Positions 4,880 to 17,400 of a stretch of DNA of 27,279 bases are shown one piece after another (the stretch's first letter is position 1; the number at the start of each line of letters is the position of its first letter). Source of the stretch: a virus (Duplodnaviria > Heunggongvirae > Uroviricota > Caudoviricetes); the IMG/VR virus record IMGVR_UViG_2541047774_000009. One strand, written 5' to 3'. Made by a program: the position numbers and the translations under genes. The notes under the pieces were generated by a model. That model made no database searches. It was not told the origin of the DNA and worked only from the letters and a program-made list of their open reading frames with translations.

Positions 4880-5359
4880 TTTTATTCCTACGGGTCTTAT
4901 TCTGACAATATATCCTGTGTTCCAGACTGCCACATCACCACATCCTGTGCCATTATCTGACTCACATTACATACATCGCATCGGGATACAGTAGTAGCAC
5001 TTTCTGTAATACAGCTTCCGGTTTCTTCCACCATCGCACCGGGATAAATCCGCGAATCATTAACGCGGTAAAAACCCGGTGTGCATCGTTTTTAATTATT
5101 CCCGCACACTCACGCAGAAGGAATTCCCCGTCGGGCTACGGTCATGGTTAATGCGGGAATACGGCGACGATACAGCGCAGCTAAAAGGGTAATGGACGGA
5201 TAGACCGGTTTATTTCATTCTACAGGATTCTGAGTGTCCCCAACTCCCTCCAATCGTCTGAGCTCACCTGTGTAGTTTTAATTTTCATCAATCCATTTAA
5301 CTATCGTTTAATTGTTGTCACATAGGATTCTGCCGTTTTTAACAATGCAGGATAATAAG

Positions 5360-5653
5360 ATGAAAAAAATGTTGTTTTCTGCCGCTCTGGCAATGCTTAT
5401 TACAGGATGTGCTCAACAGACGTTTACTGTTGGAAACAAACCGACAGCAGTAACACCAAAGGAAACCATCACCCATCATTTCTTCGTTTCGGGAATTGGG
5501 CAGAAGAAAACTGTCGATGCAGCAAAAATTTGTGGTGGTGCAGAAAATGTGGTTAAAACAGAAACCCAGCAAACATTCGTAAATGGATTGCTCGGTTTCA
5601 TCACTTTTGGCATTTATACTCCGCTGGAAGCGCGGGTGTATTGCTCAAAATAA
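5360..5653 (+). CDS. bor: Bor lipoprotein (serum-resistance outer-membrane lipoprotein, 97 aa)
   Basis: MKKMLFSAALAMLITGCAQQTFTVGNKPTAVTPKETITHHFFVSGIGQKKTVDAAKICGGAENVVKTETQQTFVNGLLGFITFGIYTPLEARVYCSK closely matches lambda Bor; oriented opposite to lysis genes as in lambda. Confidence 0.9.
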   Translation: MKKMLFSAALAMLITGCAQQTFTVGNKPTAVTPKETITHHFFVSGIGQKKTVDAAKICGGAENVVKTETQQTFVNGLLGFITFGIYTPLEARVYCSK

Positions 5654-7054: not shown

Positions 7055-7364
7055 TTCTTCCCGGCAGTTTTCCTTTGTAGGTTATCCACACACTCTGCGC
7101 CTCTAAAATTATGGGGCGCTTTTCCGGCGACTGCTCATCCCCTCCACATAACCCGGCAGCAACATCCAGGAAGACCTGTCTGATGCTCCTTCTGGCTGCT
7201 GCCTCATAAAACTCCAGCGCGGCACCTTCAACACGGTCCAGCGAGATGTCCAGGTCAAAAATTTCACCGTCAAAGCGTTCTTTGTCCTGTAATGCTAAAG
7301 TTACCGTAACTTTATTCTCAAAATTGCGGATCCCTTTCACAATCATTTCATAGTTTTGGACCAT
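7020..7364 (-). CDS. DUF1327-family phage protein (YdfR-like, 114 aa)
   Basis: MVQNYEMIVKGIRNFENKVTVTLALQDKERFDGEIFDL...; AGGAG RBS; sits between holin and endolysin as ydfR does in Qin-type prophages; start 4 nt after holin stop. Confidence 0.6.
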   Translation of the reverse strand: MVQNYEMIVKGIRNFENKVTVTLALQDKERFDGEIFDLDISLDRVEGAALEFYEAAARRSIRQVFLDVAAGLCGGDEQSPEKRPIILEAQSVWITYKGKLPGRITGSLKTPPKW

Positions 7365-7368
7365 TATA

Positions 7369-7584
7369 TTACTCTCCTCTCGCAGCCTTTCTTCTGTCTT
7401 CTCTGATTTTGAAGTACAGATTCGTCAGATAAGTCAGAAAGCCCAGAACCAGACTTCCCAGTACACCAATCGCAGCCCACTGAGACGGACTAACCTGATC
7501 AAGCCATTGTAAAAACCAGTAGCCAGCACTGCCTGCGGAGGTGCCGTAGGCAATGCCTGTTGATATTTTTTCCATCTGATACAT
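7369..7584 (-). CDS. S: Class II holin/pinholin, S21/EssD-like (71 aa) with dual-start motif
   Basis: [71 protein letters not shown] matches S21/EssD family; two in-frame ATGs (7584 and 7575) 3 codons apart; paired with SAR endolysin. Confidence 0.85.
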
Positions 7585-7693
7585 ATCCCGCCCCAACAGA
7601 CCTGTGCTACCGGAAAGAAAAAAGGCCATCAGCAAAACTCTGATGGCCTGAATCACCTTTACCAGTCATGTATGAAAAAATACGCACAACCAA

Positions 7694-7823
7694 TTGACAA
7701 TAATTATCATTTTCATTAAAAATACCGCGTAACATTCTTATTTCATGAAGAACCATACCCGCCAGCGACCTGAGTAGCAAAAGCTGTTCATCCCCCATAT
7801 TTTTGCTGGCGGGTTCTTTTTTC
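7694..7823 (+). ncRNA. Candidate small RNA transcription unit antisense to the late-operon leader
   Basis: Consensus -35 TTGACA at 7694-7699, A/T-rich -10 region 7717-7723, then 10-bp perfect GC-rich stem (ACCCGCCAGC 7757-7766 / GCTGGCGGGT 7805-7814) followed by TCTTTTTT; no ORF over 10 codons. Confidence 0.3.
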
Positions 7824-8049
7824 TACTGCCCTCCTCCCCAGGAAAAGCATTTCATTCTTTTCTCATTAATCGTTACTGGAGAGAAGGCGGGAAAAAGCCA
7901 GCTCTTTGGCCCTAAATAACAGCATGGCTTCAGTCCATACAGAATCTGATTTTCCAGCTCACATAATAACCAGATGATGCAGTTGCAAAATCTGGCAACA
8001 TCGGATTATTATGCGCCTGTGAAAATTTCTTCACGTTTTATTCCTTGCC

Positions 8050-8077
8050 GCCCGTGCCTCCCAGCGCGGGCTTTTTT
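8050..8077 (+). terminator. Plus-strand intrinsic terminator-like hairpin with T6 run
   Basis: GCCCGTG...CGCGGGC stem (one G-U pair) followed by TTTTTT at 8072-8077. Confidence 0.4.
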
Positions 8078-8081
8078 ATCC

Positions 8082-8107
8082 AAAAAATACCCCTCCGGAG
8101 AGGGGTA
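8082..8107 (-). terminator. Minus-strand intrinsic terminator (candidate tR'-like)
   Basis: Perfect 8-bp stem TACCCCTC/GAGGGGTA (8088-8095/8100-8107) with 4-nt loop, followed on the minus strand by a U6 run (plus-strand AAAAAA 8082-8087). Confidence 0.5.
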
Positions 8108-8396
8108 TCATACAAGGGGATGACCATGATGCATGGTGCCGGGTGCCTCCCGGTGAGTCCGGCATCAGCATACGAACCCGCGATTATCCCAGAACTGACT
8201 GCTGATTCGCCCCGCCGCTTAGGGGGATTCACCATGCGTTTTTTTATTTACAAACTCTTCGCCAGACAAACAACCATTAACTGGCTGAATTGTGAGGTAT
8301 TTCAATTTTTAGAAAACTGACCAACCTCCGCTTATACGCCGGGCATGGAGCGGATACAAAAAAGCCCCGCAAAAGCAGATCAGAAGGATTCGTTGT

Positions 8397-8436
8397 AAAA
8401 AAAAAGCTGTCAGATTATCGCGCTAATCTGACAGCT
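8397..8436 (-). terminator. Minus-strand intrinsic terminator downstream of methyltransferase gene
   Basis: Perfect 12-13 bp stem GCTGTCAGATTA/TAATCTGACAGC (8406-8417/8424-8435), 6-nt loop, followed on the minus strand by a U9 run (plus A-run 8397-8405). Confidence 0.6.
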
Positions 8437-8677
8437 ACAGCAGGTATCCAAAAACATGGGTGGAAACAATAAGTGAGTTAAGAAGACACGGTGTCGGATT
8501 TTTACCGATGAGCCGTTGGCGTGGTCAACCGTGACTCGCTTGTATCAACGATGAATTAATGAAGCCAATCCTTTGCAGGCTATGTACAACCCACCACATC
8601 AGCCCTGCTGCATTGCAGGATACACTGTATCTGTAATCATTATACGGCACAGACATCCCACCAATAATTGAATTAAT

Positions 8678-9769
8678 TCACAAAATTGTATTTGCTGATA
8701 ACATACTGATTTCCTGGATGGTCTGATTAAACCGCTCTGTCTCAAGCTCAACACCTAACGCCCGACGCCCCAGCGCCATTGCTGCTTTTATTGTGGAACC
8801 GGATCCCATAAAGAAATCAGCAACCAGATCGCCGGGTCGACTACTGGCATTGATTATTTGCCTGAGCATATCCGCCGGTTTCTCACACGGATGTTTACCC
8901 GGGTAGAACTGAACGGGTTTATGCATCCAGACATCGGTATAAGGCACGGAGACTGATACGGAGAAATAGCGCCGGAGAGATTTAAACTCATCCAGCAATT
9001 CAGAATATTTGCGATTCAGTGAATCATAAGATGCCACCAACTGGTGGTGTGGTTGTTCCAGTTGTTGTTCCTGAAACTTCTCTGCCGCTATACGGGAAAA
9101 CAGTGCCTGTAACTTCCGGTAGTCAGCCTCATTCGGCAACTGCCACTGACTGGCACCAAACCAGTGGGAAACCATATTTTTCTTACCTGTGGCTTCGGCA
9201 ATTTGTTTTGCCGTTATACCCAGTTCGGCACGAGCATCCCTGAAATACGATATCAGCGGTGCCATTATGTGCTGTTTGAGTTCCCTTTCTTTTGCCGCAT
9301 AGCCGTCACTTTTGCCGCGATATGGCCCCTGGTAATGTTCAGCAAACAGAACGCGCTCTGTGGCAGGAAAATATGCGCGCAGACTTTCTTTATTACACCC
9401 ATTCCAACGTCCGGACGGCTTCGCCCAGATGATATGGTTAAGCACGTTGAAACGTTCACGCATCATGATCTCAATATCAGATGCCAGGCGATGCCCACAG
9501 AACAGGTAAAGGCTTCCGGCTGGTTTCAGTACCCGCCAGAACTGGGCCAGACAGTGGTCCAGCCACTTCAGGTAATCTTCGTCCCCTTTCCACTGATTGT
9601 CCCAGCCGTTGGGCTTCACTTTGAAGTACGGCGGATCGGTAACAATCAGATCAATGGAGTTATCAGGCAGGGACTGAATAAAATGCAGGCAATCAGCGTT
9701 GATTAAATCAACACTGTTTATTTTTACAGTATTTTCATGGATCAGTAAGCGTAACTCTGGTAGGCTCAC
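8678..9769 (-). CDS. Orphan DNA methyltransferase, beta-class N6-adenine/N4-cytosine type (363 aa)
   Basis: Motif IV DPPY near N-terminus (LIVTDPPYF) and AdoMet motif I near C-terminus (DFFMGSGST): circularly permuted beta-class order; GTG start at 9769; no adjacent endonuclease gene. Confidence 0.8.
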   Translation of the reverse strand: MSLPELRLLIHENTVKINSVDLINADCLHFIQSLPDNSIDLIVTDPPYFKVKPNGWDNQWKGDEDYLKWLDHCLAQFWRVLKPAGSLYLFCGHRLASDIEIMMRERFNVLNHIIWAKPSGRWNGCNKESLRAYFPATERVLFAEHYQGPYRGKSDGYAAKERELKQHIMAPLISYFRDARAELGITAKQIAEATGKKNMVSHWFGASQWQLPNEADYRKLQALFSRIAAEKFQEQQLEQPHHQLVASYDSLNRKYSELLDEFKSLRRYFSVSVSVPYTDVWMHKPVQFYPGKHPCEKPADMLRQIINASSRPGDLVADFFMGSGSTIKAAMALGRRALGVELETERFNQTIQEISMLSANTIL

Positions 9770-9888
9770 TCTGCTTTTGCGCTAAAGCAGTGGGCCGTGG
9801 TTCGCTTGTGACAAGTAAGCATGAGCGAATGGCTGGCAGGTGCTACCAACACCCACCAGCCGCCCATTTTCACAGCAGGAAACCGCCA

Positions 9889-10092
9889 TTACTGGCAGCG
9901 TCTGAATTTATTCCCGTACCCGCCGTTATCCTTCGCCAGACCCGCCAGAACTAACTGAGTCAGTATTAACTGGCACCGGGCTTCGCTTACTCCGGTAGTT
10001 CTCGTCATCATGCGTGGCGTTACCCACTTGTCAGCAGGTAAGAAATGAAGGACTGCGGCGGCGGTTTCTGTCATATCTTGCTGTTTTAGCAT
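9889..10092 (-). CDS. Hypothetical small winged-helix-like protein (67 aa from internal ATG; ORF extends to 10116)
   Basis: ORF co-oriented with and 119 nt upstream of the methyltransferase; helix-turn-helix-like segment TPRMMTRTTGVSEARCQLILTQLVLAGL; internal ATG has GAAGGG upstream; no family recognised. Confidence 0.3.
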   Translation of the reverse strand: MLKQQDMTETAAAVLHFLPADKWVTPRMMTRTTGVSEARCQLILTQLVLAGLAKDNGGYGNKFRRCQ

Positions 10093-10411
10093 GTCTTTTT
10101 CCCTTCTGGTTAACATGACATACCAATAACTCTTGTCTAAAAAGCCAGCAAGATAAAAAGTCAGTATTCACGACCACCAGCGTGTTTACTGTGCTGCACC
10201 AAGTTTACAGGTACAAAAAAACCGCTCAGCGGCGGGTTTAAGTTGTGTGGCGAAGTAACCACTCTTAACACAGTAATCTAGAAAATGCGGACCGCGTTAG
10301 TGATTTTTATCTGTTTTTCCATTATTTTTTTGCCACACAGCTTAAAACGAAAAATAAAGCAGGCGTTGCCAAACCTCACGGTGACAGTTGGCTTAGAATG
10401 AGGACATATTT

Positions 10412-11431
10412 TTGGATAAGTTTGATGAGATTCATGTAGACATTGAATCTGAGCAGCAAGCCTTCGATTTGCTTGAAAGCTATCTTGATGGTTATGGTTT
10501 ACCTGACAGTTTAAGTTTCAACGGATGGCCAAACCTTACCATCAGATTAACCGGTGAAAAATTCAACAGATCGCTAACACCTTCAGTTATGAAGGGATTT
10601 GTTGAAATGCAAGCTCAAATCAACAAATCATATGCCCTTGCCAAGTACGGTGTCCCTGACGTCCGCAAACTGACCAAAGAAGAACTTGATGCCCTAGAAA
10701 TAGAAGTTACGGTAGAACAGGGTTCTTCAATAGTAGAAATCAACATTGATGGCTTTTTAACCAAACTCACACAGGAACTTGTTGGTAAAATGAACGCAAC
10801 TGAGATCATGTTTACTGTTCTCGGCGCAGCAGTCATCTGGGGCGGAGTAACAGTATTTAAACGGTTCTTGGACAACCGTAAAGATATTCGCCTTGCAGAA
10901 ATTGCTAAGGATGGAGAGAAAGAACATCTCCGGACTATGCAGATCATGAGCGAGCAAGAAACTAAACGCCTGCGGGTTATTTCAGAAATGATTGCGGAAA
11001 AACCACTTCTCGATAACATGGACCGTATGTCGTATGACGCTAAAACCCAAATGGTCAAATCCTTTGTGCGTTCAGATAACGCTCAAATTGATGGCGTTAC
11101 TATTGATTCTGAAATGGCGAAAGAGTTGGTTACGAATGCTCGTAGACGTTCATCAGAAATGAGGATTGATGGTATTTACCGAATTGAAGAAGTCAATAAT
11201 ACTGACCCAGAGAGTTTCAAAGTTAAGGTCCGACGCGTAGATACCGACCAACGTCTAACCTGCGTAGTTCAGGATGTTTTCCTTGATGAATCCGGAAACA
11301 AAGAAGCATTGCAGCGAGCTGAGTGGGAAAGAAAGCCTGTACATTTGAGCATTAACGCAAAACACGTCGATGGTGACATTAAGTCAGCAGTAATTCTCTA
11401 TGTTCGAGATGTGGAACAAAAGCCCGAGTAA
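10412..11431 (+). CDS. Hypothetical membrane-anchored protein (339 aa, single central TM helix), lower-GC moron convergent with late genes
   Basis: TTG start with GAGGA 7 nt upstream; one hydrophobic helix (IMFTVLGAAVIWGGVTVF, residues about 133-150) separating two soluble domains; stop codon sits in the loop of a hairpin shared with the convergent Q gene; no catalytic motif recognised. Confidence 0.6.
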   Translation: MDKFDEIHVDIESEQQAFDLLESYLDGYGLPDSLSFNGWPNLTIRLTGEKFNRSLTPSVMKGFVEMQAQINKSYALAKYGVPDVRKLTKEELDALEIEVTVEQGSSIVEINIDGFLTKLTQELVGKMNATEIMFTVLGAAVIWGGVTVFKRFLDNRKDIRLAEIAKDGEKEHLRTMQIMSEQETKRLRVISEMIAEKPLLDNMDRMSYDAKTQMVKSFVRSDNAQIDGVTIDSEMAKELVTNARRRSSEMRIDGIYRIEEVNNTDPESFKVKVRRVDTDQRLTCVVQDVFLDESGNKEALQRAEWERKPVHLSINAKHVDGDIKSAVILYVRDVEQKPE

Positions 11432-11438
11432 TCGGGCT
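11417..11438 (-). terminator. Hairpin terminator immediately downstream of Q (shared with convergent 339-aa gene)
   Basis: 7-bp stem AGCCCGA/TCGGGCT (11421-11427/11432-11438) with GTAA loop; on the minus strand followed by TTTTGTT. Confidence 0.5.
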
Positions 11439-11445
11439 TCAATAA

Positions 11446-11823
11446 TCAATCTTTAATTTCGGGGTCCATCTCTAGACTAATTTCCAGCATCGATAGGCAG
11501 CCATCAATAAACCCCTCAGCCATCTGTATCTCAATGCGTATTAGTTTCTCATCCTTTTTACGAGCCTTGGCGAGCTTTCTTTTAGAGATACCGTATAGGT
11601 AATGGGCAACAAGAAGCGAATGTTCGTCCGGCCTTTTTTGCCTTAGACGAGCAAGACAACCTTCAATAATTAATGCATCACTATCTGAACATGCCTGACG
11701 TGTTTTGCTTGTATAGGGAAGAAGCCCTTTAAACCCAGCAGCTATAGGAGAATAGTCTACTCCTGAACTATCACTCGCCGCCCATGCTCCCCAACGATCC
11801 AGAACCATTTGAATATCACGCAT
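11446..11823 (-). CDS. Late-gene antiterminator Q, phage-82/QuuD type (125 aa)
   Basis: MRDIQMVLDRWGAWAA...IAAGFKGL...C.D.DA.II.GC.ARL...LL..YY...KAEG.I.G.L..L.I.LEMD pattern matching QuuD/Q82 family; GGAGA RBS before ATG 11823. Confidence 0.8.
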   Translation of the reverse strand: MRDIQMVLDRWGAWAASDSSGVDYSPIAAGFKGLLPYTSKTRQACSDSDALIIEGCLARLRQKRPDEHSLLVAHYLYGISKRKLAKARKKDEKLIRIEIQMAEGFIDGCLSMLEISLEMDPEIKD

Positions 11824-11840
11824 CAACTTTCTCCACAAAA

Positions 11841-12836
11841 TCAGGCCAGCACGCCAATTGCCAGCGCACGATCGATAAAACGAAATATCAGCTCCAGCTG
11901 GGAGCCATACTTCTCTTCAAATGCCACGGTATCCGCATGCAGCTCGTCGTGATGCTTTCTGCACAAAGGCAACACAAAGAGGTCATGCGCTTTTGTACCC
12001 ATTCCCCCCTGACCGTGGCCTATCAGGTGGTGGGGATCATCAGCAGGCTTTCCACAACATGCACACGGCTGTGTCTTAACCCAGCGCGTGTACTTTTCAT
12101 TAACCCAGCGGCGACGTTTTGGGCGTAACATAAAAGACTCCGGCGACTCCGGATCCACTTTCAGCGCCAGCACCTTTTTCGCCTTATCCTGGATGATGCT
12201 GGTGGCAGGAACCGAAGGCACAAGGTCACTTTCCCGGGTGACAGACGGCACAACAGGCTTCGGTAATCTCAGTGCCTTACGGGCTGCACTTTCCGGTAAG
12301 GCATCCGCCAGGTCATTACGAATCAGCCACCAGCACAGTTCCGGCATTGTCACAACGTGACTGTCATCAAAACCGAGATCCCGACGCACAACAGACAACA
12401 CCCAGCGGGCACAGTTATCCGTTGCCATTGATTCCAGCCGTTCCGTGAACTGATCGCGCAGCTGGTTATCGCAGTGCCAGCACAGACGGATTGCGCCCGG
12501 CGCGTGTCGCATTGTTGTCATGTTCTCGCTGTGCCAGTCGGAATGAGGCCACTGGCAGCCTTTTTCACGAAGTAACCAGCTTTCAAGACATTCCACGCCA
12601 CCAGCACGACGGATCACTGCCTCATTGCGGAACACGGCCCGAACGACAGGATCATCCGCCAGCGGTTGTGATGCCGCCGGAACGGCACCACTGGCAAAAG
12701 ATGAATAACGTTCCGGCTCAGGCTCCAGCAGGACACGCCCCTGCATAAACAGGGGCATCAGCTCTGAACCAGGTCTGAACAATACGATCCCCATACGCGG
12801 GGCAATTTCAGGGGTCAGTAGTGCTCTCACAGTCAC
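11841..12836 (-). CDS. DUF968-family phage protein with C-terminal HNH-like motif (331 aa, start uncertain)
   Basis: C-terminal cysteine/histidine cluster CACCGKP...HHLIGHGQGGMGTKAHDLFVLPLCRKHHDELH typical of DUF968 nin-region proteins. Confidence 0.65.
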   Translation of the reverse strand: MTVRALLTPEIAPRMGIVLFRPGSELMPLFMQGRVLLEPEPERYSSFASGAVPAASQPLADDPVVRAVFRNEAVIRRAGGVECLESWLLREKGCQWPHSDWHSENMTTMRHAPGAIRLCWHCDNQLRDQFTERLESMATDNCARWVLSVVRRDLGFDDSHVVTMPELCWWLIRNDLADALPESAARKALRLPKPVVPSVTRESDLVPSVPATSIIQDKAKKVLALKVDPESPESFMLRPKRRRWVNEKYTRWVKTQPCACCGKPADDPHHLIGHGQGGMGTKAHDLFVLPLCRKHHDELHADTVAFEEKYGSQLELIFRFIDRALAIGVLA

Positions 12837-16571: not shown

Positions 16572-17400
16572 GACGATGCCCTCCGCTGATATTCAGGAGA
16601 CGGTGAATATGAAAATTAGCCTTATCCGCCAGACGAATACGTTCAGCTTGCAAGTTAAGAAGGGTTTCTACCAGAACCTGATGTGCCTGCGGATCCGAAA
16701 GAGTTACCTTGCGCAGAGCACGTAGTGCAGTTGTTACATAACTGAGTTTATGTAAGTCTTCATCATTCAGACGAGTGAGGGCTGGGACAGTAGCCATGAT
16801 GGCAGCCTCCGTATGCAATGGATAACTTCCACCACCGGAAACGCCAATTTCGCTGGTGGTGAACTGAGCAGGGTTGGCGTAACCGGCGCATACGGAAACC
16901 GGCGCACCTTTCGGTGCCCCCACCCAGCCCACCATAATTTGGGTATAGCTGAGTTGTAGCAACAAAAAAGACGCTAACGCGCCAATTGTCGCCGTATGCA
17001 ATTCCAGGACGCCAATCCCGGCACCCGCTTTATAAGGTGCCTGAACAGTGTAACGTCCCGGAATGGCAGAATCAATGTGCTGGTGGTCCTTCACACTCAA
17101 CAAAATCACGCCTGAATTTCCACAAAGGGCTAAAGCACTCATGCGGGTAGTCTTTGCGAAGATAGATAACGCGCTGTGTTTCTGGCTCCCAACGAATAAC
17201 ATGAACATAAAGTCCTCTTCCGTCACGAAACCAGCGGTTAAGTTCCTGCACAACTCGCCCCCCACAGTCAGGTAAAGTTCTCTGTGGTTACTTACAGCCA
17301 GGAGATTTGGTAATCTGCATTCATGCCGTAACAACAGGTGTTCAGCGACGCTGACCACCAGCTGTTGCGACAAACGGTTATTTGCCGTTAAACTGTTCAT
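16564..17400 (-). CDS. Hypothetical protein (278 aa)
   Basis: Long ORF tightly packed in early-right operon with ATGA overlap to upstream gene; no family recognised. Confidence 0.5.
   Translation of the reverse strand: MNSLTANNRLSQQLVVSVAEHLLLRHECRLPNLLAVSNHRELYLTVGGELCRNLTAGFVTEEDFMFMLFVGSQKHSALSIFAKTTRMSALALCGNSGVILLSVKDHQHIDSAIPGRYTVQAPYKAGAGIGVLELHTATIGALASFLLLQLSYTQIMVGWVGAPKGAPVSVCAGYANPAQFTTSEIGVSGGGSYPLHTEAAIMATVPALTRLNDEDLHKLSYVTTALRALRKVTLSDPQAHQVLVETLLNLQAERIRLADKANFHIHRLLNISGGHRHA

Follow-up and report, generated by a model that had tools for sequence, protein, structure and literature searches.

The region examined here belongs to a window of 27,279 nt (the whole stretch of DNA that was analysed), which is a lambdoid E. 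coli prophage. The part of the window between 7560 and 8700 is found at 99.9% identity in 123 complete genomes, including those of IHE3034 and APEC O78. The late genes are encoded on the minus strand, in the order Q, a 75-aa ORF denoted orf75 (9889-10116), a DNA methylase gene (8678-9769), a gap of about 1 kb without a convincing gene, and an S21-type holin gene (7584-7369), with DUF1327, lysozyme, Rz and terminase located 3' of the holin; this order is interrupted between Q and orf75 by a convergent 339-aa ORF on the plus strand. Two ORFs that overlap the region, of 65 and 91 aa, had no match in Pfam.

The gap between the methylase and holin genes contains several transcriptional elements. 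Past the methylase gene, scanning and folding identified two minus-strand terminators, at 8436-8405 (13-bp stem, -20 kcal/mol, z -5.7) and at 8379-8366. These are followed by a minus-strand sRNA gene at 8266-8078 and, converging on it, a plus-strand unit at 7983-8077. A possible TATAAT -10 element at about 8643-8648 on the minus strand could yield an RNA of ~235 nt ending at the two terminators behind the methylase gene.

Additional elements were observed elsewhere in the window. A candidate sRNA of ~85 nt (7618-7714, minus strand) immediately precedes the holin, with a strong terminator (7649-7623, z -4.2) and a sub-threshold SgrS-like Rfam match (24.8 bits, E 6e-4) that covers the seed-like GACUGGUAAAGGUGA; apart from STnc100, described below, this was the sole match of a permissive Rfam search over 7300-11900. 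In the PGAP annotation of an identical prophage a 63-aa ORF (7607-7798, minus strand) is placed there instead. On the opposite strand, a promoter close to the consensus (TTGACA-18-AAAAAT, 7694-7723) points towards a long hairpin with a T-run (~7759-7822, CCCGCCAGC...GCTGGCGGG), and this plus-strand segment (7694-7822) may represent a second small convergent unit opposite the holin-proximal candidate. Adjacent Rfam matches to the C4 antisense RNA (80.7 bits) and isrK (61.2 bits) at 16852-17040 on the minus strand mark a c4/ant immunity module of the P1/P7 type, like that of Salmonella Gifsy-1. Downstream of Rz, at ~5312-5653 on the plus strand, lies a virulence moron in the late region, the bor-like lipoprotein gene iss (increased serum survival), as annotated by PGAP in the identical prophage of strain 14EC001.

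An STnc100 gene on the late strand

The minus-strand unit in the gap is a complete copy of STnc100 (EcOnc27/sRNA103), an sRNA already known from prophages. The Rfam family RF02076 matches the window at 8266-8078 over model positions 1-206 of 206, with a score of 114.5 bits (E 1e-24), above the gathering score of 47. The 5' end of the Rfam model includes ~28 nt of promoter DNA, and the primary transcript, whose start we predict from conservation and homology, would extend from ~8238 to ~8082 (~157 nt).

The promoter of this unit, at 8273-8245, consists of a -35 element TTGTTT (8273-8268), a 17-nt spacer and a -10 element TAAATA (8250-8245) immediately preceded by TG. About 7 nt separate it from the conserved 5' end GCATGGTG downstream, and about 160 nt from the terminator. 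The preliminary description had proposed this promoter as plausible and weak, and taken alone it is indeed no better than chance: it fails the criteria of a consensus scan, which reported 15 promoter-like sites in the region when 15.1 were expected. The -10 element does not have the usual final T, being TAAATA here and TTAAAA in relatives. Nevertheless, the layout TTGnnT-17 nt-TTAAAA/TAAATA directly 5' of GCATGGTGAATCCCCC was found in 46 distinct upstream variants of homologous loci, and is kept 5' of GCATGGTG in all lineages, even when the flanks are unrelated. This conservation across unrelated flanks identifies 8273-8245 as the promoter of the STnc100 family.

The transcript ends at an intrinsic terminator at 8109-8082, with a 10-bp stem (8109-8086) and a U-run (8087-8082). 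Its hairpin is strong (-17.6 kcal/mol, z -3.6), and none of 200 shuffled sequences folded equally well. A minus-strand terminator had been placed at 8082-8107, about 500 nt upstream of the lysis gene S, and both statements hold, as the holin starts at 7584, ~500 nt downstream. Promoter, RNA of ~160 nt and terminator form a small self-contained unit on the late strand, as had been suggested.

Using the invariant core of STnc100 we retrieved 124 copies from viral contigs. In all of these, as in the window, the gene resides on the late strand, after the late-promoter region and before the lysis genes; in the window its neighbours are the methylase gene and the holin. The fold of the family comprises a closing helix (GCAUGGUG/CACCAUGC), a CCCCC/GGGG hairpin, a variable central helix, an invariant CCGGG/CCCGG hairpin and the terminator, and folding the window copy as a single sequence reproduces this conserved structure. 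A consensus of 17 sequences contains 27 pairs, six of them with compensatory changes, and the central helix is among the compensated elements. Near the predicted 5' end there is an invariant CATGGT, which resembles a -10 element in three of six positions, among them A2 and T6; its conservation is explained by pairing with CACCATGC in the closing helix.

Several relatives of the window copy have been characterized. EDL933 carries 11 STnc100 copies that are expressed without induction, one of them confirmed by Northern blot (PMC5331693), and relatives bind Hfq (PMC4104026, PMC7873438). The copy in Sp5, an Stx2 prophage of Sakai, is the Hfq-bound EcOnc27, which is the same as sRNA103 (PMC4104026, PMC7873438, PMC12711010). 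ChIP-exo binding of RpoD at STnc100 copies of Salmonella LT2 is reported (PMC10794520), and PasD of EPEC is considered to be an STnc100 relative (bioRxiv 10.64898/2026.05.13.724894).

It is conceivable that STnc100 has an added role in cis and does not act in trans alone. Carried on the late transcript, or read from its own promoter past a leaky terminator, it would then serve as a leader or processing element that adjusts the expression of nanS-p or the lysis genes downstream. Such a role would fit the invariant position of the gene, which in over 100 loci shortly precedes nanS-p or the holin on the same strand. It would also fit the pattern of conservation among the copies, where GCAUGGUGAAUCCCCC and UCACCGGGAGGCACCCGGCACCAUGC are almost invariant and the central region varies, an unusual pattern for an sRNA that works through its seed alone. 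Imperfect U-tracts, such as GGGGCUUUCUUAUGG, are moreover found in many copies. The window copy, however, has a strong terminator with U6, late genes are expressed normally in phages without STnc100, and the Hfq-binding relatives accumulate as discrete RNAs. We consider this added role unlikely.

A convergent small RNA and an antisense reading frame

The unit that converges on STnc100 occupies 7983-8077 on the plus strand and has a promoter and a terminator of its own, from which an RNA of ~58 nt is predicted. Its promoter (7983-8012), identified by the scan, has a -35 element TTGCAA (7983-7988), an 18-nt spacer and a -10 element TATTAT (8007-8012); conservation and homology suggest a start at ~8019. 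The terminator at 8050-8077, identified by scan and folding, has an 8-bp stem (8050-8071) followed by T6 (8072-8077) and folds with -16.7 kcal/mol (z -4.1). We confirm the earlier observation that this terminator abuts the minus-strand one: both are strong, and the two hairpins lie 14 nt apart. They stand back to back because STnc100 and the plus-strand sRNA gene converge. The predicted RNA is itself well folded (-21.1 kcal/mol, z -6.0), and the unit is conserved at ~82% identity in 38 of the retrieved loci.

This arrangement is familiar from the prophages of enterohaemorrhagic E. coli. Convergent sRNA genes located 3' of pR', at the moron site, were described in eight Sakai prophages by Tree et al. 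in 2014 (PMC4104026), and a later review refers to them as 'dyads' situated between the late promoter and the lysis genes; the published descriptions cover at least 8 Sakai prophages (PMC7873438, PMC4104026). In Sp5, 75 nt separate stx2B from the STnc100 gene (207.7 bits), whose terminator is abutted on the opposite strand by AsxR (88.1 bits). The plus-strand unit of the window likewise abuts and converges on an STnc100-type gene at the moron site, has its own promoter, and is predicted to yield an RNA within the 51-60 nt range. Moreover, the promoter GCAGTTGCGCAG... is common to this unit and to the AsxR/AgvB-like bodies of other loci. We were not able to find a match to the Rfam models of AsxR or AgvB in window positions 7300-11900 at E<=1, while the Sp5 AsxR, used as a control, scored 88.1 bits. 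A full-text literature search with the sequence of the plus-strand RNA found no paper. By its sequence, the predicted plus-strand RNA is a third, unclassified class at the AsxR/AgvB position. Its position and shared promoter make it a candidate anti-sRNA.

The same strand carries a short ORF, antisense to the 5' end of STnc100 and to its promoter. As had been noted, it begins at an ATG at 8234 and has a Shine-Dalgarno sequence, GGGGGA, which lies 7 nt before the ATG; its length needs correction, since the frame has 28 codons and extends to 8320, and not 26 codons to 8314. This ORF might encode a real small protein, in which case the plus-strand terminator would belong to another transcript. 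The strong Shine-Dalgarno sequence would agree with this, as would the fact that the frame stays open for at least 28 codons in several lineages. But the Shine-Dalgarno sequence and the ATG are the reverse complement of GCAUGGUGAAUCCCCC, the invariant 5' motif of the sRNA. Among homologs the frame varies from 2 to 108 codons (for example 2, 5, 10, 13, 16, 17, 28, 34, 59 and 100) and stops after 2-5 codons in at least 30 copies. The ORF, furthermore, starts at 8234 and heads away from the plus-strand terminator that ends at 8077, and no plus-strand promoter is evident upstream of it. Its product had no Pfam match. We see very little prospect that it encodes a protein; the comparison of homologs indicates that the 28-codon ORF is not a conserved gene.

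Q and the predicted late promoter

The Q gene of the window (11446-11838, minus strand, with a likely start at MRDIQ, 11823) belongs to the Q21/Q933W family (PF06530, E 2e-52). Its product is a distant match to the Q21 structure 6P18 and is 90% identical to the Q of phage cdtI and 71% identical to that of phage 1720a-02. The preliminary description stated that Q is followed immediately by a terminator and a convergent gene. A hairpin with a poor T-run (11440-11419, -13.8 kcal/mol, z -3.9) does begin 5 nt past Q, and only 14 nt lie between the end of the 339-aa ORF and the stop codon of Q. The conclusion that no late promoter lies directly after Q stands, as the site is occupied by the convergent 339-aa gene (10412-11431, plus strand; phrog_6191), a moron inserted between Q and the promoter. 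We found no match for this gene in Pfam or PADLOC or to a defence system.

Other inserts, of 825-1667 nt, are present at the equivalent junction between Q and the promoter in other loci. This junction is a recurrent insertion site (L010, L014, L071, L092, L103, L108, L110, L004, which is cdtI, and L005, which is PhiR40_1), where the inserts of 0.8-1.7 kb differ in the genes they carry, some convergent and others unrelated. Although the Q/pR' cassette is generally described as contiguous, such inserts interrupt it in at least 10 of the 24 loci with the Q type of the window.

On the far side of the insert, at 10303-10245 on the minus strand, homology and the motif GTTAAGAGTGGTTACTTCGCCACAC predict the late promoter pR' together with a conserved early transcribed motif. 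The motif itself (10269-10245) is specific to the Q type: when up to 4 mismatches were allowed, it was found in 23 of the 24 loci that share the Q type of the window and in none of the 58 loci whose Q is of another type. Its distance from the Q stop codon is 16-39 nt where the two are uninterrupted and 825-1667 nt where genes have been inserted; for the window it amounts to 1177 nt. The motif aligns with the pR' of Sp5, for which a start at 1,266,203 was mapped by dRNA-seq and tR' was located by Term-seq 258 nt downstream (PMC7547250). After correction for the assembly version, with the terminator as an anchor, the mapped Sp5 start falls within GATAAG/AGTGG, 6-7 nt past the -10 element TATCAT. 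By conservation and homology, the start in the window would be at ~10268-10263.

The exact hexamers of pR' in the window are uncertain. The -10 element could be TACTGT at 10275-10270, which is the position equivalent to that of Sp5, or TAGATT at 10280-10275; neither candidate has a recognisable -35 in the promoter subclass to which the window belongs, which is marked by GCGGTCCGC upstream of the motif. The consensus scan reported no site on the minus strand in 10240-10340. Since it found neither pR' nor the STnc100 promoter at 8273-8245, both promoters rest on conservation and not on consensus strength. A sigma-dependent pause element was also considered in the pR' leader; the Sp5 TACATT corresponds to TACTTC here and is not conserved, and we make no claim for it.

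The first terminator after pR' (10238-10214, minus strand) is tR'-like, with a short GC stem and T7, and its hairpin is weak (z -1.8). A homologous terminator, AACCCGCCG..GCGGGTTTTTT, lies behind the promoter of every Q type among the retrieved loci, and a terminator is annotated at its homolog in phage Ayreon. In the Sp5 locus (L126), at 672-696, ~30-55 nt past the pR' start and hence inside the mapped 258-nt StxS leader, we observed a terminator-like hairpin, CCCGCCGATGCGCGGG, with T7, homologous to the window's 10238-10214. The StxS Rfam family itself had no match over 7300-11900 at a permissive threshold. From these sequence comparisons, the late promoter is most likely located ~2 kb upstream of STnc100, beyond the gene inserted after Q.

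The preliminary description had instead raised the possibility that the promoter at 8273-8245 and the terminator at 8109-8082 are themselves the Q-dependent pR'-tR' unit, displaced by ~3 kb and giving rise to a 6S-like RNA. Several features invite such a reading. A promoter, a structured RNA of ~160 nt and a terminator do follow each other on the late strand ~500 nt before S, the space between Q and the convergent gene is too small for a promoter, and the CATGGT near the 5' end could be read as a sigma-dependent pause element. The invariance of CATGGT is, however, explained by its pairing in the closing helix, and the Q-type-specific motif is present elsewhere in the window, as described above.

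The distribution of STnc100 across loci weighs further against this proposal. Promoter-proximal sequence of a late cassette, with its Q binding element, would be specific to one Q family and inherited together with it. STnc100 instead follows four unrelated families of Q, confirmed by Pfam as PF06530 (24 loci), PF03589 (29), PF06576/DUF1133 (15) and PF06323 (14). Every Q type is directly followed by a conserved promoter and leader of its own; in PF03589 loci, for example, this is a lambda-like promoter, TTGATT...TAAATT...AACGATGGG. The promoters of all Q types lead into the AACCCGCCG..GCGGGTTTTTT terminator and then into the orf75 and methylase module. In one locus (L090), window positions 7655-9874, STnc100 included, recur with 99% identity; the Q that precedes them is of the lambda type and has a lambda-like pR' of its own containing AACGATGGG.

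Nor is STnc100 adjacent to Q in any of the 82 loci with a Q gene. The shortest distance from the Q stop codon to the STnc100 core among them is 378 nt, with the promoter and terminator of that Q in between, and in the window the STnc100 promoter lies ~3.2 kb from the Q stop codon and not immediately downstream of Q. In Sp5, too, pR' was mapped beside Q, and STnc100 lies beyond stx2B (PMC7547250). Finally, STnc100 is missing from the viable phages cdtI and PhiR40_1, which share the Q type and the motif and in which the holin directly follows the methylase gene. Judging by these complete phages, STnc100 is not required for late expression. A displaced pR'-tR' at 8273-8245/8109-8082 is therefore not supported, and we regard it as highly improbable: the unit is a known sRNA gene that occurs with four Q families and is absent from viable phages with this Q type.

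The preliminary description had stated that its proposal would fall if the late start were located elsewhere, and homology does place the Q-type-specific promoter and leader elsewhere, at ~10300-10214. As one such alternative it had named a start directly downstream of Q, reading antisense through the 339-aa gene, and this part does not apply: because pR' lies on the far side of the insert, the late transcript need not read antisense through that gene.

Proposed arrangement and relation to known systems

Taken together, these results make it very probable that the locus is a convergent sRNA pair in the moron zone, with the late promoter elsewhere, at ~10.3 kb. The sequence features in question are real, and the arrangement has already been published for lambda-like prophages. 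We propose that two convergent sRNA genes at 7983-8273 occupy the moron zone between the late promoter and the lysis genes. STnc100 would be transcribed from its own sigma-70-type promoter into a structured RNA of ~157 nt that stops at 8109-8082, and the plus-strand gene from the 7983-8012 promoter into an RNA of ~58 nt that stops at 8050-8077, at the site which the anti-sRNAs AsxR and AgvB occupy in EHEC prophages. In the lysogen, by analogy with their relatives, both RNAs would be made independently of Q and would act in trans in association with Hfq.

The Q-dependent late promoter would be at ~10300-10245 on the minus strand, followed by the weak first terminator at 10238-10214, with the insert having moved Q 1177 nt away. 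After induction, Q-modified polymerase starting at pR' would traverse orf75, the methylase gene and then a series of terminators to reach the holin. From the gene order and the established mechanism of Q (bioRxiv 10.1101/651190), we infer that it would read through those at 8436-8405 and 8379-8366, that of STnc100, and that at 7649-7623. In this limited sense the 8109-8082 terminator would be one of the barriers overcome by Q.

For annotation, this means that the locus should be labelled as STnc100 with a convergent sRNA gene at the AsxR/AgvB position, and not as a late promoter, which belongs at ~10.3 kb, beyond the gene between Q and the promoter. The convergent partner RNA represents a class outside the AsxR and AgvB models, and the window adds nothing new on the biological role of STnc100. 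A more far-reaching interpretation, to which we give only a small chance, would make STnc100 a conserved cis RNA module and, separately, the plus-strand RNA a third anti-sRNA class with new host targets. If true, every late transcript would carry, immediately ahead of nanS-p or the lysis cassette, an element that for example modulates its processing, stability or readthrough, which would explain the two near-invariant core segments across mosaic phages with four Q systems.

Among known systems, lambda 6S and StxS (PMC7547250) share with STnc100 that a short RNA is made in the lysogen from a promoter on the late strand and ends at an intrinsic terminator which polymerase has to pass with the help of Q. 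Unlike 6S and StxS, STnc100 is neither adjacent to Q nor specific to a Q family, and phages with the same Q can dispense with it. In the window, the homolog of StxS/pR' is 10303-10214, not STnc100.

The minus-strand gene has a close counterpart in Sp5, whose STnc100 has the same fold, the same 5' and 3' core sequences, the same position on the late strand, past the pR'-proximal morons and ahead of nanS-p or the lysis genes, and an abutting convergent partner. The window copy scores lower (114.5 vs 207.7 bits) because its central variable domain is shorter, and the neighbours differ, with the methylase gene upstream and a partner other than AsxR in the window, as opposed to stx2B upstream and AsxR as the partner in Sp5. 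The plus-strand RNA, in turn, resembles AsxR (RF02703), AgvB (RF02702) and EcOnc03 in site, orientation and size (~58 vs 51-60 nt). It shares with AsxR and AgvB a homologous promoter (GCAGTTGC...TATTAT or TAAAAT) and a terminator back to back with that of STnc100. It differs from them in its body and terminator, which read CUUCACGUUUUAUUCCUUGCC and then GCCCGUGCCUCCCAGCGCGGGC, whereas the ~42-nt 3' region of AsxR and AgvB ends in GCCCGAACCCACUCGGGC.
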